From NCBI RefSeq assembly GCF_051903065.1, contig NZ_CP178438.1: a DNA stretch of 64,000 nt; one strand, given 5' to 3'. Both the position numbers and the translations under genes were made by a program. Shown here one piece after another: positions 6,526 to 18,948 of this stretch (position 1 is its first letter; each line of letters starts with the position of its first letter). The notes beneath the pieces were generated by a model. The model did not search any database and was not told the origin of the DNA. It saw only the letters and a list, made by a program, of their open reading frames with translations. Source of the DNA: Escherichia coli (GTDB lineage: Bacteria > Pseudomonadota > Gammaproteobacteria > Enterobacterales > Enterobacteriaceae).

Positions 6526-6785
6526 GTTAAGTCTCCTTGTCGATCACCCGCAAAACAGTATTGCAGGTCACAGGGTTAGCAGAAAATGTTGTCAACACAA
6601 GACAGGCTTGCGAGATATGTTTGAGAATACCACTTTATCCCGCGTCAGGGAGAGGCAGTGCGTAAAAAGACGCGGACTCATGTGAAATACTGGTTTTTAG
6701 TGCGCCAGATCTCTATAATCTCGCGCAACCTATTTTCCCCTCGAACACTTTTTAAGCCGTAGATAAACAGGCTGGGACACTTCAC

Positions 6786-7244
6786 ATGAGCGAAAAATAC
6801 ATCGTCACCTGGGACATGTTGCAGATCCATGCACGTAAACTCGCAAGCCGACTGATGCCTTCTGAACAATGGAAAGGCATTATTGCCGTAAGCCGTGGCG
6901 GTCTGGTACCGGGTGCGTTACTGGCGCGTGAACTGGGTATTCGTCATGTCGATACCGTTTGTATTTCCAGCTACGATCACGACAACCAGCGCGAGCTTAA
7001 AGTGCTGAAACGCGCAGAAGGCGATGGCGAAGGCTTCATCGTTATTGATGACCTGGTGGATACCGGTGGTACTGCGGTTGCGATTCGTGAAATGTATCCA
7101 AAAGCGCACTTTGTCACCATCTTTGCAAAACCGGCTGGTCGTCCGCTGGTTGATGATTATGTTGTTGATATCCCGCAAGATACCTGGATCGAACAGCCGT
7201 GGGATATGGGCGTCGTATTCGTCCCGCCAATCTCCGGTCGCTAA
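6786..7244 (+). CDS. gpt: xanthine-guanine phosphoribosyltransferase
   Basis: 152 aa, [27 protein letters not shown]-binding [11 protein letters not shown]. Confidence 0.95.
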
Positions 7245-11535: not shown

Positions 11536-12789
11536 ATGCTTGAACAAATGGGCATTGCCGCGAAGCAAGCCTCGTATAAATTAGCGCAACTCTCCAGCCG
11601 CGAAAAAAATCGTGTGCTGGAAAAAATCGCCGATGAACTGGAAGCACAAAGCGAAATCATCCTCAACGCTAACGCCCAGGATGTTGCTGACGCGCGTGCC
11701 AATGGCCTTAGCGAAGCGATGCTTGACCGTCTGGCACTGACGCCCGCACGGCTGAAAGGCATTGCCGACGATGTACGTCAGGTGTGCAACCTCGCCGACC
11801 CGGTGGGGCAGGTAATCGATGGCGGCGTACTGGACAGCGGCCTGCGTCTTGAGCGTCGTCGCGTACCGCTGGGGGTTATTGGCGTGATTTATGAAGCGCG
11901 CCCGAACGTGACGGTTGATGTCGCTTCGCTGTGCCTGAAAACCGGTAATGCGGTGATCCTGCGTGGTGGCAAAGAAACCTGTCGCACTAACGCGGCAACG
12001 GTGGCGGTGATTCAGGACGCCCTGAAATCCTGTGGCTTACCGGCTGGTGCCGTGCAGGCGATTGATAATCCTGACCGTGCGTTGGTCAGTGAAATGCTGC
12101 GTATGGATAAATACATCGACATGCTGATCCCGCGCGGCGGGGCTGGTTTGCATAAACTGTGCCGCGAACAGTCGACGATCCCGGTGATCACAGGTGGTAT
12201 AGGCGTATGCCATATTTACGTTGATGAAAGTGCAGAGATCGCTGAAGCATTAAAAGTGATCGTCAACGCGAAAACTCAGCGTCCGAGCACATGTAATACG
12301 GTAGAAACGTTGCTGGTGAATAAAAACATCGCCGATAGCTTCCTGCCCGCATTAAGCAAACAAATGGCGGAAAGCGGCGTGACATTACACGCAGATGCAG
12401 CTGCGCTGACACAGTTGCAGGCAGGCCCCGCGAAGGTGGTGGCGGTTAAAGCCGAAGAGTATGACGATGAGTTTCTGTCATTAGATTTGAACGTCAGAAT
12501 CGTCAGCGATCTTGACGATGCCATCGCCCATATTCGTGAACACGGCACACAACACTCCGATGCGATCCTGACCCGCGATATGCGCAACGCCCAGCGTTTT
12601 GTTAACGAAGTGGATTCGTCCGCTGTTTACGTTAACGCCTCTACGCGTTTTACCGACGGCGGCCAGTTTGGACTGGGTGCGGAAGTGGCGGTAAGCACAC
12701 AAAAACTCCACGCGCGTGGCCCAATGGGGCTGGAAGCACTGACCACTTACAAGTGGATCGGCATTGGTGATTACACCATTCGTGCGTAA
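11536..12789 (+). CDS. proA: gamma-glutamyl phosphate reductase
   Basis: 417 aa, [37 protein letters not shown]. Confidence 0.95.
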
Positions 12790-12902: not shown

Positions 12903-12979
12903 GGCCGATATAGCTCAGTTGGTAGAGCAGCGCATTCGTAATGCGAAGGTCGTAGGTTCGACTCCTATTATCGGCACCA
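12903..12979 (+). tRNA. thrW: tRNA-Thr (CGU anticodon), prophage attachment site
   Basis: GCCGATATAGCTCAGTTGGTAGAGCAGCGCATTCGTAATGCGAAGG...TCGGCACCA cloverleaf ending in CCA, immediately followed by an integrase gene. Confidence 0.85.
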
Positions 12980-12993
12980 TTTAAATCAATAAG

Positions 12994-14157
12994 TTACACA
13001 TCATTAGTACCTTCCTTATTTTTTGACTGGGACAAATTTGGGACCGATGGGTTCAGGATCGAGTCTATTTGCCGTGCGTGTTCGGTAAGGTGATTAGGTG
13101 CAAGGTGAGCATATCGACGAACCATTTCGATAGACTCCCAGCCTCCCATTTCCTGTAACACTGACAACGGGACTCCGGCTTGAACTAGCCAACTTGCCCA
13201 GGTGTGTCTCAAGTCGTGAAATCTGAAATCATCAATACCAGCCCGTCTCAGCGCCGCTTTCCAGGCTGTGTTTGCGTCATACCGCATCTTCCTTACTGTT
13301 GGCGCTTTCGTTCCGTCTGGTTTGGTACAGCTTTCCTTGTACACAAATACCCAACGGTGATGATTCCCGATTTGTTTTTTCAAAACGCGACATGCAGTAT
13401 CATTCAGCGCAACGCCAATTGCGCGGTTTGATTTACTCTCTTCCGGGTTTATCCATGCCACCCGGCGCTGCATGTCTATTTGTTGCCATTCAAGGTTGAT
13501 GATGTTCGAGCGTCTTAAGCCTGTTGCCAGTGCAAATTCAACAACAGACTTTAATGGCTCCGGACATTCATCAATCAGCCTTTGTGCTTCATGGGGCTCC
13601 AGCCAGCGGATCCGTTTATTCTTTGGTTGAGGCACTTTAATAATTGGTGCCTTATCCAGCATTTTCCATTCACGCTCTGCGGCTCTTAGTAGGGCCTTTA
13701 TAAATGAAAGATGCGTAGCCTTCGTTGCAACGGACGCTGGTTTTGGCGTGTATTCTGGAACAGGTTTCCCTTTTTTTCTGCATGCTTCTGCCCTGAGTCT
13801 CCAGTTTTCCTCATGACGCCGGTTCGTCATTTTCTGCATTGCTGAATAAATTTTTGATTCAGTAATGTCTCTTAGTTGCATTCCTGCGAAATGTTGAAGC
13901 CAGAATCCGATCCGGCTTTTGTCATCGTCCAGTGATTTTTTATGTGCTTTCTCTTCAAGCCACCTGACACACGCTTCCTCGAACGTTATATCAGGTATTT
14001 CACCAAGTTTGCTGACCCGCCATGCTTCAGCCTTTAGCTTGTCATGGAGTTCTGTCGCCTGCCTTTTGTCCTTTGTTCCAAGAGACTGTTTAAATCTTTT
14101 ACCGTTCGGCAATGTGAAACTGGCGTACCATATTTCACCTCTGCGGAAGAGTGACAT
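12994..14157 (-). CDS. int: tyrosine integrase, P22 Int-like
   Basis: 387 aa, [31 protein letters not shown]..., catalytic [15 protein letters not shown]...VRRYAHL; adjacent to thrW. Confidence 0.95.
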
Positions 14158-16595: not shown

Positions 16596-16958
16596 TTAAC
16601 GACCTGCTGCGCGGAGTTTTCCGTCAGGTTCACCGGCAAGAGTCAGTAACTGTCCCTGGTCTTCCTGCAGAATAGTCAGGCGACCACCGCGATTGACATA
16701 CATCGGCGTTTCGGTGGTGTCTTCTTCGGAAATTTTCCCGCGGTTAGTCGGGCGAACATATGAGAGTTTGTGTTTGATTTTCACTCGGTTCTCATCAAAC
16801 GGTTCGATTTCCAGGTTGAGCGAGACCTTACCTTTGGTTTTCGTGTTCATCACACCGGAAGCGACTTCACTGAGAACTGCGCCGATTTTGGTTTCAAATA
16901 CGCCGCCGTCCAGCTCCCCGATAAATGCCTGCACATCAGTACTGCGTTCGCTAGCCAT
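16596..16958 (-). CDS. hypothetical prophage protein (YfdP-like by position)
   Basis: 120 aa from MASERSTDVQAF... with AGGAG RBS 8 nt upstream; the longer track ORF is a 5' extension. Confidence 0.5.
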   Translation of the reverse strand: MASERSTDVQAFIGELDGGVFETKIGAVLSEVASGVMNTKTKGKVSLNLEIEPFDENRVKIKHKLSYVRPTNRGKISEEDTTETPMYVNRGGRLTILQEDQGQLLTLAGEPDGKLRAAGR

Positions 16959-17090
16959 TTTGCTGCTCCTCATCATATCGACCCTGCAAGGTCGGTTAGT
17001 TTCTCCACAAAACAGAGAAGAACACCTGCGGTGACTGCCGCCCGGATGGATTGGGTTATGAGCCCGTCGTCCGGTGATGCTCTTCTCTGT

Positions 17091-17139
17091 TTTGTAAAAA
17101 GGACGGTACCAGCCGGAAGCAAGAGTACAAGCTGGTACC
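17091..17139 (-). terminator. intrinsic terminator (tL-like) upstream of the leftward early genes
   Basis: 9-bp stem GGTACCAGC/GCTGGTACC followed on the minus strand by a T-run. Confidence 0.5.
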
Positions 17140-17426
17140 GCCAAGACTACACACAGCATAAAGTTGTGGTGCCGGGTGCCTCCCGGTGCCTGGCGAAGGT
17201 TGCACACCAGGCGGGTGGGTATCCACAGAAGGTCGACTGTCAGCCTCAACCTTAACCCGCGTGCGCTGAGCCGCATTCACCACAACGCTAAGGATTCTCT
17301 CTGGTTGAAAATACTTAGCTGTTATGTGCCTGCTTTTAGCCACATCAGGCGAGGTGGACCTAGTTATTCCCCAACAACAAGGATTCGGTTAATCTGGTTA
17401 TCCCCAACAACGCAAAAGGAAAAGAA

Positions 17427-17861
17427 ATGTCCGGTAATATCTATACGCTGTACAAATCCCACTGTGAAAATGTTGGAAAGTATCGGGGCATTGAAATCAG
17501 TGGGGTAGTGTCATCAGTCGAAATAAGCAAAGTTGAATCAAGGGCAACATTACTTACTCTTTTGGACCTTGTCTTACATGAGCACCGGAAGAAATTCGGC
17601 ACTCCCTATAATCAGTTGAATGGGAAAAAGGCTCTGGTTCACCTTATTCTGATGAAGCATCACTGGATGCCAAAACAGATTAATGAGATGAAATTTGATG
17701 AACTTCTTCTTTCAATTCAGGATGAACTCACACTTGATAAAATAAGCGTAACCGCCCAGAAATTTTTAGATTATCGAGACTGGAGATCACAAATTCATCA
17801 CTTTGATGATTTTGACGAAAATGAATGGGATCCTAATTTGTCTGCACAATATCTAAAGTAA
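17427..17861 (+). CDS. hypothetical AT-rich moron protein in immunity region
   Basis: 144 aa ORF on the opposite strand to flanking early genes; preceded by two GTTAT(T)CCCCAACAAC direct repeats. Confidence 0.55.
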   Translation: MSGNIYTLYKSHCENVGKYRGIEISGVVSSVEISKVESRATLLTLLDLVLHEHRKKFGTPYNQLNGKKALVHLILMKHHWMPKQINEMKFDELLLSIQDELTLDKISVTAQKFLDYRDWRSQIHHFDDFDENEWDPNLSAQYLK

Positions 17862-18039: not shown

Positions 18040-18098
18040 TTCACATCTCCTCAAGTTATCAGTTACTTGTTGATGGGGACCAGATTGTTAAAGAGCTA

Positions 18099-18122
18099 AG
18101 CGTCCTGTAGGGCGCTTTTTTG
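18099..18122 (+). terminator. intrinsic terminator
   Basis: AGCGTCC-loop-GGGCGCT hairpin followed by TTTTTT. Confidence 0.5.
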
Positions 18123-18273: not shown

Positions 18274-18948
18274 TTAGGCTTTGATTTTGTATCTTCTTGG
18301 TTTTCCTGAGAAAATCACTGTACCAATTATAGAGCAATTACCGTTGATCTTAATGTAAGGCTCAGGCCAGTTTGGGTTTAACGCTTTGAGATAACGCTGT
18401 GTCCCATCTTCTATCAACCTTTTGAAGGTGGTTTCGCCTGTATCGTGCATCAATGCAATAACGTCGTCACCGTGGCAGGCAGGTACTTCAGGATCGACAA
18501 AAATCATGTCTCCCGGGCGGTACTCATCAATCATTGAATCACCTATCACCCGCAAGATATAAGTCATTTCCCCACAGGGTACAGGGCAGGGATACGTTTC
18601 TGCTGTGCTCAAATCAACCTCAGAATATCCAACTTCTTTCCATGCTCCGGCCTGTACCCATGATATGACAGGGACTAATGTGATTTGTTTATTAGTGATT
18701 GAAACATCAGGTTTTTTTGTGATGTTCGTTGTCTGGTGTTCTTGATCGAGCCATCCGACAGGCAGGTCGAAACATTTTTCGATGTGTCGTGCCATGCTGT
18801 CACCGATATTTTTAGTAGCACCATCTCCCATAAACCTGCTGGTCTGGGTTGGCTCGCGATCAATCATAGTGGCAAAGGAAGAATTCCCGCCAACACCATC
18901 TCTCAGTTTTCTGGCGTTAGACCGCCGGATGTCATGGATTGTTTTCAT
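18274..18948 (-). CDS. cI: CI-like repressor (HTH + S24 LexA-like peptidase domain)
   Basis: 224 aa, C-terminal S24 motifs (VIGDSM...YRPGDMIFVDPE...GDDVIALMHDTGETTFKRL); divergent from cro. Confidence 0.9.
   Translation of the reverse strand: MKTIHDIRRSNARKLRDGVGGNSSFATMIDREPTQTSRFMGDGATKNIGDSMARHIEKCFDLPVGWLDQEHQTTNITKKPDVSITNKQITLVPVISWVQAGAWKEVGYSEVDLSTAETYPCPVPCGEMTYILRVIGDSMIDEYRPGDMIFVDPEVPACHGDDVIALMHDTGETTFKRLIEDGTQRYLKALNPNWPEPYIKINGNCSIIGTVIFSGKPRRYKIKA

Follow-up and report, generated by a model that had tools for sequence, protein, structure and literature searches.

The intergenic stretch upstream of the yfdP-family gene of an Escherichia coli prophage (positions 16976–17426 of the 64,000-nucleotide stretch of contig NZ_CP178438.1, assembly GCF_051903065.1, referred to as the window in this text) is probably an RNA-gene block within the leftward early operon. 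We give this reading a probability of roughly 65%. It holds that the minus strand encodes a small RNA (sRNA) of about 190 nt whose terminator, T, also serves as a gate to the genes behind it, that a second structured module, X, follows, and that readthrough signals are located at the 5' end of the operon, just behind the candidate leftward promoter PL. The sRNA would combine a pseudoknotted 5' domain of the STnc100/PasD type with a single-stranded stretch and a terminator ending in a U-tail, which is the layout of Hfq-type base-pairing sRNAs. The positions of all features are collected in Table 1.

A first-pass annotation, made from the letters alone, had described the stretch as long, structured and non-coding. 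Indeed, about 468 bp without a credible gene separate the start codon of yfdP (ATG, 16958–16956, minus strand, with a Shine-Dalgarno sequence) from that of an ECs1072-family gene (ATG at 17427). The stretch lies between the immunity region and yfdP as had been stated, but it does not adjoin the former, since an open reading frame (ORF) of 68 aa and the 144-aa ECs1072-family gene intervene. Likewise, the minus-strand RNA block occupies most of the stretch but not its last ~100 bp (17320–17426), which form part of the plus-strand gene as its 5' region. The fold of the minus strand is much more stable than those of shuffled sequences: the minimum free energy (MFE) of 17320–17085 is -100.9 kcal/mol (shuffles -76.4 ± 4.8, z = -5.07) and that of 17100–16955 is -59.5 kcal/mol (shuffles -37.0 ± 3.7, z = -6.12), and for neither segment did any of 200 shuffles reach this stability.

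Public records do place protein-coding features on the RNA block (window positions 16974–17283), and ORFs of 95–226 aa overlap it. In the record of phage SfIV (L001, 3637–4549), gp34 is stretched to 226 aa, an extension of yfdP, and gp35 is added across the block; the Prokaryotic Genome Annotation Pipeline (PGAP) lists a pseudogene, 'frameshifted hypothetical protein'. We regard these ORFs as junk, as had been suspected. PGAP itself flags the frameshift, phage ST64B (L002) has no annotation at this place, yfdP has its own start with a Shine-Dalgarno sequence at 16958, and the substitutions among relatives are compensatory in RNA helices. That the region codes for protein is therefore next to negligible as an explanation.

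A search of Rfam together with a comparative analysis revealed a conserved, covarying structure. The only meaningful Rfam match in the region is STnc100 (RF02076), which aligns with 17316–17093 on the minus strand over the full model (1–206 of 206; 43.4 bits, E = 2.7e-7). The GC-rich segments that had been noted upstream of the terminator are thus the multi-helix core of an STnc100-like RNA. In the model alignment the elements follow in the order of the family, namely P1, the GGUGAAU junction, the P2 hairpin, the CCGGGAGGCACCCGG hairpin and the 3' terminator, although the register of P2 had to be shifted from the Rfam consensus structure.

For comparison, viral contigs were scanned for GGTGAAT followed, after a gap of 70–100 nt, by ACCGGGAGGCACCCGGCACC, which yielded 58 distinct cores. 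Both this set and that of the leader RNA described below were retrieved with exact patterns, and conservation of the pattern bases is no evidence in either. In 47 aligned sequences, 96.2% of the P1, P2 and P5 positions were paired as compared to 83.7% after shuffling, with 116 as compared to 41 double-change cells (0 of 500 shuffles), and all controls with slid partners stayed below 48%. Since shuffle controls ignore phylogeny, we base our judgement on the slid-partner controls and on how many independent pair types there are. P5 is invariant because the retrieval pattern forced its bases, and it is P1 and the re-registered P2 that the covariation in these alignments supports.

The core also contains a predicted pseudoknot, in which the strand 3' of P2 pairs with the loop of the last hairpin but one. 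The complementarity is present in 58 of 58 cores. Among 14 independent sequence types, the longest run of pairs averaged 7.6 within a sequence and 5.9 between sequences (0 of 5000 permutations), and this complementarity across types supports the predicted pairing. We used a permutation test here and not the MAFFT alignment for the counts on the pseudoknot and P4, as its gap placement was structurally inconsistent. Because it admits G-U pairs, and because motifs are common to some classes, this test is conservative. The pseudoknot does not appear in the structure line of the Rfam family; nor could it show up in the published PasD/STnc100 consensus, because the program used for it, RNAalifold, does not predict pseudoknots. 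In the window, the 5' strand has a choice of partners: AAGGUUG(A) AAGGUUGA (region 17229–17253) can pair either with CAACCUU or locally with UCGACCUU, the latter giving a hairpin in the MFE fold. The L103-type lineage shows a comparable pair of options (AGACUG/CAGUCU). From the modelled folds, this dual pairing may constitute a conformational switch.

The STnc100-like cores come in two types. Canonical copies have a P2 of the form CCCCC...GGAGGGG, a TTGAC-type promoter immediately precedes several of them, and most have a terminator behind them; several of those scanned with Rfam lie beside tRNA genes in the late region. One of them, on a Stx-phage-like contig (L008, 687–946; 207.7 bits), is arranged back to back with the anti-sRNA AsxR, which lies on the other strand two bases from its end. 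Window-type copies have a P2 of the form GCGGC...GC-A-CGC. In the lambdoid loci examined, they are found inside the leftward early operon, 3' of a cI-type repressor gene and a short first ORF. The exceptions are L043 and L112, where the cores lie beside tRNA genes and a DNA methyltransferase gene.

The hairpin and T-run of the first-pass annotation were confirmed with slightly changed coordinates and form the intrinsic terminator T. Its core is a perfect 10-bp inverted repeat (17104–17113/17131–17140) that extends to 12–13 pairs (GGCGGUACCAGC...GCUGGUACCGUCC), and with a GC-rich stem and an immediate U-run it has the features of a Rho-independent terminator. The hairpin has a predicted stability of -18.2 kcal/mol, and in an energy-based scan no other strong terminator-like site appeared between PL and int; a stricter rule (perfect stem, at least 6 T in 8) missed T itself. 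Because its loop measures ~17 nt and its U-run only 5 U, the efficiency of termination is uncertain. Judged from its sequence, T is a genuine intrinsic terminator, and since roughly nine early genes of the same orientation lie behind it, polymerase must be able to pass it in some way. Within the single-stranded stretch between P1 and T, UGCUGUGUGUAGUCUU is kept across the window, ST64B and L106 lineages though their terminators differ, which fits a predicted seed or chaperone site.

An experimentally characterized counterpart of the unit is sRNA-17 of E. coli K1 strain RS218, whose length of 193 nt was determined by 5'/3' rapid amplification of cDNA ends and which was detected by Northern blot (Sun et al. 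2020, PMC7719688). It is encoded in a mEp460-like prophage upstream of yfdP and is more abundant in stationary phase, ArcA-P binds upstream of it, and its deletion altered host phenotypes (PMC7719688). When sRNA-17 was replaced by a cassette, yfdP rose 95-fold (from 0.49 to 47 reads) and yfdR also went up (PMC7719688). We used phage mEp460 as a stand-in for the RS218 prophage. Its unit, from GTTGTGGTG to GGTACCGCTCTTTT (P1 to U-run), measures exactly 193 nt, and the window equivalent, 17286–17097, measures 190 nt. The supplementary alignment of that study (PMC7719688) opens at gttgtggtgaatgc / gttgtggtgaatgcgcaggc and closes, as reverse complement, at aaaagagcggtaccagccgg, which is the terminator.

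The window and mEp460 units have in common 22 nt around the 5' strand of P1, with the 5' end GUUGUGGUGAAUGCG, the 3' strand of P1, CACCACAAC, a nearly identical T, which in mEp460 forms the 3' end of sRNA-17, and thereafter hairpin X and yfdP. With the same place upstream of yfdP, the same ends and nearly the same length, the window unit is a direct positional homologue of sRNA-17. The likeness does not extend over the whole length, as the core between P2 and P5 aligns unconvincingly and the units have no upstream region in common, the proposed ArcA-bound promoter included. With STnc100 and PasD, on the other hand, the window RNA shares the full-length alignment, GGUGAAU, ACCGGGAGGCACCCGGCACC, compensated P1, P2 and P5 helices, the pseudoknot and the 3' terminator, while it differs in its P2 sequence, in its place in the PL operon and in having no promoter of its own. 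Going by these comparisons of sequence, the window RNA is a mosaic with the ends and context of sRNA-17 and a core of the STnc100 type. It thereby connects two families kept apart in the literature: STnc100 and PasD were reported as prophage sRNAs, the latter found by Hfq RIL-seq (in which interacting RNAs are ligated and sequenced), and Zhu et al. 2026 connect only these two, while the authors of the sRNA-17 study found no Rfam homologue and regarded window-type copies as 'degenerative' partial matches (PMC7719688).

The existence of a discrete homologue bears on the possibility that the core is a cis-acting sensor, riboswitch-like or protein-binding, that controls the terminator or the next gene. 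Such a role would suit its complex fold, with a multi-helix junction, a pseudoknot and conserved junction bases, and the alternative local partner of the pseudoknot 5' strand, which is found in at least two lineages (window and L103 type). It would also suit those relatives that precede start codons without a terminator; in L043, P1 is directly followed by a U-run. However, the argument from the conserved core is weakened by the retrieval pattern, which forced those bases, and canonical members exist as separate genes that have a promoter of their own, a variable single strand and a terminator. No conserved alternative pairing between the core and T was found, either; a 6-bp possibility in the window was dropped as an antiterminator pairing because it is not kept in ST64B. 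Finally, the positional homologue accumulates as a discrete 193-nt RNA (PMC7719688). A cis-acting switch is thus an unlikely description of the unit, and we retain that of an sRNA gene, in which the pseudoknotted STnc100/PasD/sRNA-17 core may nevertheless be a ligand- or protein-binding domain instead of a passive scaffold.

How would the sRNA arise? A consensus scan found no sigma-70 promoter of its own on the minus strand at 17290–17430, nor at the same place in SfV, and all candidates picked by eye were rejected since they were without key -10 bases. A small hairpin, P0, directly abuts P1, whose 5' strand corresponds to the mapped 5' end of sRNA-17. Together, these findings suggest that the RNA is probably cut from a longer transcript, as is DicF. 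This precursor would come from PL after induction, or from an unrecognized promoter in the lysogen. T would then have a double role, making the 3' end of the sRNA and stopping unmodified polymerase before yfdP, yfdQ, yfdR and the following genes up to xis and int. The 95-fold rise of yfdP in the sRNA-17 knockout fits T as a block before yfdP-int. Polymerase that passes T would transcribe X, which probably affects how stable the yfdP message is or how it is processed or translated. We infer the release of the RNA by termination at T, its processing, its trans-acting role and the role of X from these arrangements.

DicF itself, from the dicBF operon of prophage Qin, is reportedly also an sRNA in an immunity-proximal early operon of a lambdoid prophage; Faubladier et al. 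are said to have described in 1990 that it is freed by processing and by termination at its own hairpin. The window RNA is not a member of this family: there is a weak terminator likeness (RF00039, 17155–17101, 20.2 bits with a cut-off of 48, E = 0.45), but DicF measures 53 nt and is without a large structured 5' domain.

X begins, with its 5' arm, at the U-run of T. Its junction motif, ACGGGCUCAUAACCCAAUC, is located at 17067–17049 on the minus strand. We found 26 sequence variants of X in 46 loci, and its outer stems covary; Rfam contains no match to it. In most variants, from window-type and related lineages, X directly follows a terminator, whose U-run supplies the first bases of the 5' arm, whereas in L043-type loci it is placed immediately 5' of the core. 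The occurrence of X does not depend on that of the STnc100-like core, and X is found downstream of the PL leader with or without the core. The contigs L043 (9205–9300, 9484–9660) and L112, which carry DNA methyltransferase and tRNA genes, contain two tandem copies of an arrangement with X directly 5' of a core that is STnc100-like or sRNA-17-like; a gene for a small membrane protein begins 36 nt after the second of these cores. On the other side of the unit, a hairpin of different sequence abuts P1 in place of P0 in ST64B, mEp460 and L103-type loci. The folding z-scores of the upstream hairpins are modest (-1.9, -1.8 and -0.25).

The unit, at 80% or more of its length, is present in 1829 of 5426 complete E. 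coli genomes (~34%) with 90–100% identity, and among the genome matches listed it is labelled 'hypothetical protein'. This conservation is relevant to the idea that the block merely insulates transcription from the oppositely oriented inserted gene, its RNA product having no function. An opposite-strand gene does abut the block both here and in SfV, these operons often have terminator-like sites on the opposite strand (1.65 per 2 kb), and T and the small hairpins could act in both directions. An insulator alone would not account for the covariation that keeps helices other than the terminator (P1, P2, the pseudoknot, the stem of X), for the G-U pairs, which occur on the minus-strand RNA only, or for the frequency and identity of the unit in E. 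coli; moreover, its homologue is expressed and the deletion changed host phenotypes (PMC7719688). We consider a mere insulator quite improbable.

Table 1. Predicted and annotated features of the RNA-gene block and its surroundings (window positions; ranges on the minus strand are given in the direction of transcription, except for genes annotated with start and end in ascending order)
Feature	Position	Strand	Remarks
Predicted sRNA, ~190 nt	17286–17097	−	STnc100-type core with sRNA-17-type P1 and terminator; from P1 5' strand GUUGUGGUG to U-run
Structured core	17286–17163	−	P1, GGUGAAU, P2, pseudoknot, P4, P5
Core P1	17286–17278 with 17171–17163	−	Closing helix
Core GGUGAAU junction	17281–17275	−	
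Core P2	17274–17259	−	Re-registered: five pairs, bulged A
Core pseudoknot	AAGGUUG 17253–17247 with CAACCUU 17202–17196	−	3' strand in P4 loop
Core P4	17212–17188	−	Loop holds 3' strand of pseudoknot
Core P5	17186–17172	−	
Seed-like single strand UUUAUGCUGUGUGUAGUCUUGG	17162–17141	−	Between P1 and T; unpaired in MFE fold
Intrinsic terminator T	17142–17096	−	Stem 17142–17101; UUUUU 17100–17096, one base after stem
Module X	17095–17007	−	~25-bp hairpin capped by three-way junction; yfdP 5' leader; folding z -6.12
Upstream accessory elements	17360–17287	−	Small hairpin 17357–17340; CACAUAACAG 17328–17319; P0 17319–17287
Candidate PL promoter	18234–18206	−	TTGACA, 16 nt, CATAAT; 11/12 match; directly after cI-family terminator
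PL-leader RNA, ~70 nt	within 18202–18115	−	Begins few bases after PL; unannotated
Leader P1	18191–18185 with 18135–18128	−	Outer helix
Leader conserved block AGGCAGGACGCCCACGAAGUAGCCGCC	18184–18158	−	AGGCAGGACGCCCACGAAGUAGCYGCC
Leader stem II	18159–18154 with 18143–18138	−	Variable
Hairpin + boxA	Hairpin 18117–18098, boxA 18096–18085	−	Thirty bases after leader
68-aa ORF	18039–17833	−	PHROG 1744, unknown function; only leftward ORF between PL and the RNA block
ECs1072-family gene, 144 aa	ATG at 17427	+	Opposite to leftward operon
5' region of ECs1072-family gene	17361–17426	+	Separate from minus-strand RNA unit
yfdP-family gene	16596–16958	−	PGAP name YfdP; PHROG 204; first delayed-early gene 3' of T and X
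Integrase gene	12994–14157	−	Prophage leftward genes, up to yfdR, yfdQ, yfdP
LexA/cI-family repressor gene	18274–18948	−	Prophage immunity region

If T is to be passed during lytic growth, a mechanism other than the N protein would have to be found, as no N-type antiterminator is recognizable. The 68-aa ORF behind PL is not arginine-rich (1 Arg in its first 35 residues) and has no Pfam hit, and neither PHROG nor Pfam revealed a protein antiterminator nearby. On these points the first-pass annotation was right. It had further suggested that readthrough may depend on a put-like RNA element or an unrecognized factor. In the first of these readings, the structured RNA at 16976–17426 would act like the put sites of phage HK022, as a processive antiterminator past its own terminator. 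The absence of N and a structured RNA upstream of a terminator in an early operon are in keeping with this idea, but on inspection the region has no likeness in sequence or architecture to putL and putR of HK022 or to the putL-like RNA of HK639, and it lies ~900 nt from PL, behind two ORFs. HK639 (L009) carries its canonical family member at a locus different from that of its putL, and other canonical copies reside beside late-region tRNA genes. We had considered the putL-like RNA of HK639 as a member of the STnc100 type, which we rejected: it is of the HK022 type and does not coincide with the L009 core. In addition, T is the end of the homologous unit, a stable RNA of 193 nt, and downstream expression went up when sRNA-17 was removed, whereas loss of an antiterminator should lower it (PMC7719688). 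The put-like reading of this region is thus largely refuted and very improbable; the region is better described as an sRNA gene whose 3' end is the terminator.

The broader notion of RNA-based readthrough fares better, if at a different place. Directly behind PL, at the position of put and outside the stretch originally described, we found a covarying leader RNA followed by a hairpin and a boxA. About 100 distinct versions of the leader were retrieved from viral contigs. Its P1 switches between GCGAAC/GAUUCGC, CCACC/GGUGG and GUCAUC/GAUGAC, and 95.1% of helix positions are paired as compared to 72.4% after shuffling (306 and 94 double-change cells, 0 of 500 shuffles; slid-partner controls below 47%). 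A promoter with at least 9 of 12 consensus bases lies upstream of 55 of 114 versions and of none of 111 control segments, with the -10 box ending 12–15 nt before P1; in the window, P1 begins ~5–9 nt after the predicted start site. The equivalent position of PL is annotated as a promoter in phage Ayreon. A model of the leader built in-house, whose E-values are rough, scores 91.9 bits at the window leader. A second copy at 37074–37156 on the plus strand was rejected as noise (11.6 bits, E = 0.16, inside a 186-aa ORF).

The leader matches no Rfam family, nor did its sequence string turn up in the literature. It occurs in phages of at least ten genera, among them Escherichia, Shigella, Salmonella, Klebsiella, Citrobacter, Pantoea, Yersinia, Pectobacterium, Aeromonas and, in T5-like phages, Providencia, as well as in 1362–1490 of the 5426 complete E. 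coli genomes (about a quarter), and is never annotated. In Providencia phage vB_PreS_PR1 (KY363465 / NC_041913, 5200–5249), the conserved half of the leader is found twice per genome, within a 'repeat_region'; these T5-like phages do not belong to the temperate lambdoid group. The first ORFs behind the leader are very diverse and none is annotated as N; the leader is independent of their identity. In L196, L213 and L220, a 70-aa ORF without PHROG assignment, 26–86 nt after the leader, starts with MNAAQRRKAYRKHPK, which is arginine-rich and reminiscent of the RNA-binding motifs of N proteins. It may be that a few leader-bearing phages also encode an N-like factor. A basic first ORF of 40–46 aa (MIDFARKPxRQQAVxLN...AQKGNP; PHROG 22279, unknown function) follows CCACC- and GUCAUC-type leaders in L141, L146, L148, L161, L192, L194, L201, L217 and others. 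Terminator-like sites are enriched in the 2 kb behind the leader (0.92 per operon as compared to 0.36 after shuffling).

The boxA is an exact rrn-type match to GCUCUUUAACAA (GCTCTTTAACAA at 18096–18085, continuing with UCUGG) and the single exact match in the window. The module of hairpin and boxA follows the leader in 23 of 124 loci, with a background of 0.0025 per 360 nt, and the loop and top of the hairpin vary. On the predicted nascent transcript, boxA would thus stand next to a hairpin as in antitermination sites; the order, hairpin then boxA, is that of rrn leaders, unlike that of lambda nut. Complexes of the rrn type are known mainly to counter Rho-dependent and not intrinsic termination. 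On the plus strand, the hairpin at 18085–18117 reads as a terminator, AAGCGTCCTGTAGGGCGCTT followed by a T-run.

The lytic readthrough of T would most likely proceed via these elements and without a phage N protein: from their position and sequence, the leader and the hairpin with boxA are the best candidates, their role in antitermination being one that we infer. The situation resembles lambda, where a terminator (tL1) likewise lies between the immediate-early and delayed-early leftward genes and is passed with nutL and N; here, N is missing. As to the leader by itself, we regard it only as a tentative candidate for a processive antiterminator. It has in common with the put sites of HK022 and HK639 its position behind PL, its length of ~70 nt and its occurrence in phages without N. 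Motifs shared with HK022 (ACGAAC, CAGGAUGA, UUAGC) suggested homology at first look, which was rejected as BLAST against the HK022 immunity region returned nothing. Since, in addition, put has no outer closing helix and the leader model finds no match in HK022, the leader is put-like by position only. It may represent a second class of cis-acting antiterminator, unrelated to put, that binds the elongating polymerase directly or nucleates host Nus factors together with the adjacent boxA.

Several findings weigh against our reading of the block. The STnc100 match stays under the curated gathering cut-off (43.4 as compared to 47 bits), as do all six window-type loci that were scanned, while seven of seven canonical loci pass it with 52.6–207.7 bits. 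The exact-pattern retrieval partly forced the invariance of GGTGAAT, ACCGGGAGGCACCCGGCACC and AGGACGCCCACGAAG. Some window-type relatives (L043, L112 and the L103 group) have no terminator after the core and lie 36–90 nt before a gene, so that they look more like cis-acting leaders than sRNAs. The mEp460-type core of sRNA-17 gives no STnc100 match and differs from that of the window, so that it is the common ends and context, and not the core, that connect the window RNA to sRNA-17. The U-tail of T has only five U, and within the window the seed-like stretch finds no complementary target, matching only itself. The authors of the sRNA-17 study propose an ArcA-regulated promoter of its own (PMC7719688), which conflicts with pure processing from PL, and because they deleted the gene with a resistance cassette, the rise of yfdP could be read-out from a promoter and not the loss of T. 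Concerning the readthrough signals, the leader is unlike put, and it is present as a single copy in the window with none behind the rightward promoter PR.

The window is a segment of the E. coli chromosome in which proA (11536–12789) and a tRNA gene (12904–12976) are followed by a prophage of the SfIV/SfII/SfV/ST64B type; its cro- and cII-like genes run rightward from ~19039. The sequence identity of the RNA-gene stretch is 97.5–99.6% with phages Kati, vB_EcoM-689R6 and SfIV, 95% over 80% coverage with SfII and 77% with Salmonella phage ST64B. Two direct repeats (D1/D2) of CCCCAACAAC, starting at 17369 and 17402 on the plus strand, precede the ECs1072-family gene. In their extended form, TTATYCCCCAACAAC, they start at ~17363 and ~17397 (span 17363–17416), ~31 bp apart, and a GGA motif follows each. 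The segment 17319–17411 by itself is 86% identical in Klebsiella and Hafnia phages, near unrelated inserted genes, one of them annotated as sieB. This ~90-bp repeat-bearing segment may be a portable regulatory or 5'-untranslated-region cassette. In the rightward region of ST64B (6732–6920, plus strand), Rfam detects isrK (64.3 bits) and C4 antisense RNA (79.7 bits); no counterpart of either reaches the gathering score in the window. No relevant literature on an sRNA of ST64B turned up.

These results imply that about one in three complete E. coli genomes carries an RNA gene that either has no annotation or is listed as a hypothetical or frameshifted protein. Its recognition joins three literatures that had been unconnected, those on STnc100 of Salmonella, PasD of enteropathogenic E. 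coli and the virulence-linked sRNA-17 of strain K1, and the refined structure with the shifted P2 and the pseudoknot can be used for a better Rfam model. Loss of T offers a simple cis explanation for the largest effect of the sRNA-17 knockout, the 95-fold rise of yfdP. With a defined leader RNA and a consensus boxA, the question of how phages without N pass their early terminators becomes directly testable. If the leader or the boxA does antiterminate, processive antitermination by RNA would be far more widespread than the few phages now known to carry put suggest, and a leader with this activity would explain how phages of the SfIV/SfV/ST64B type pass terminators such as T.

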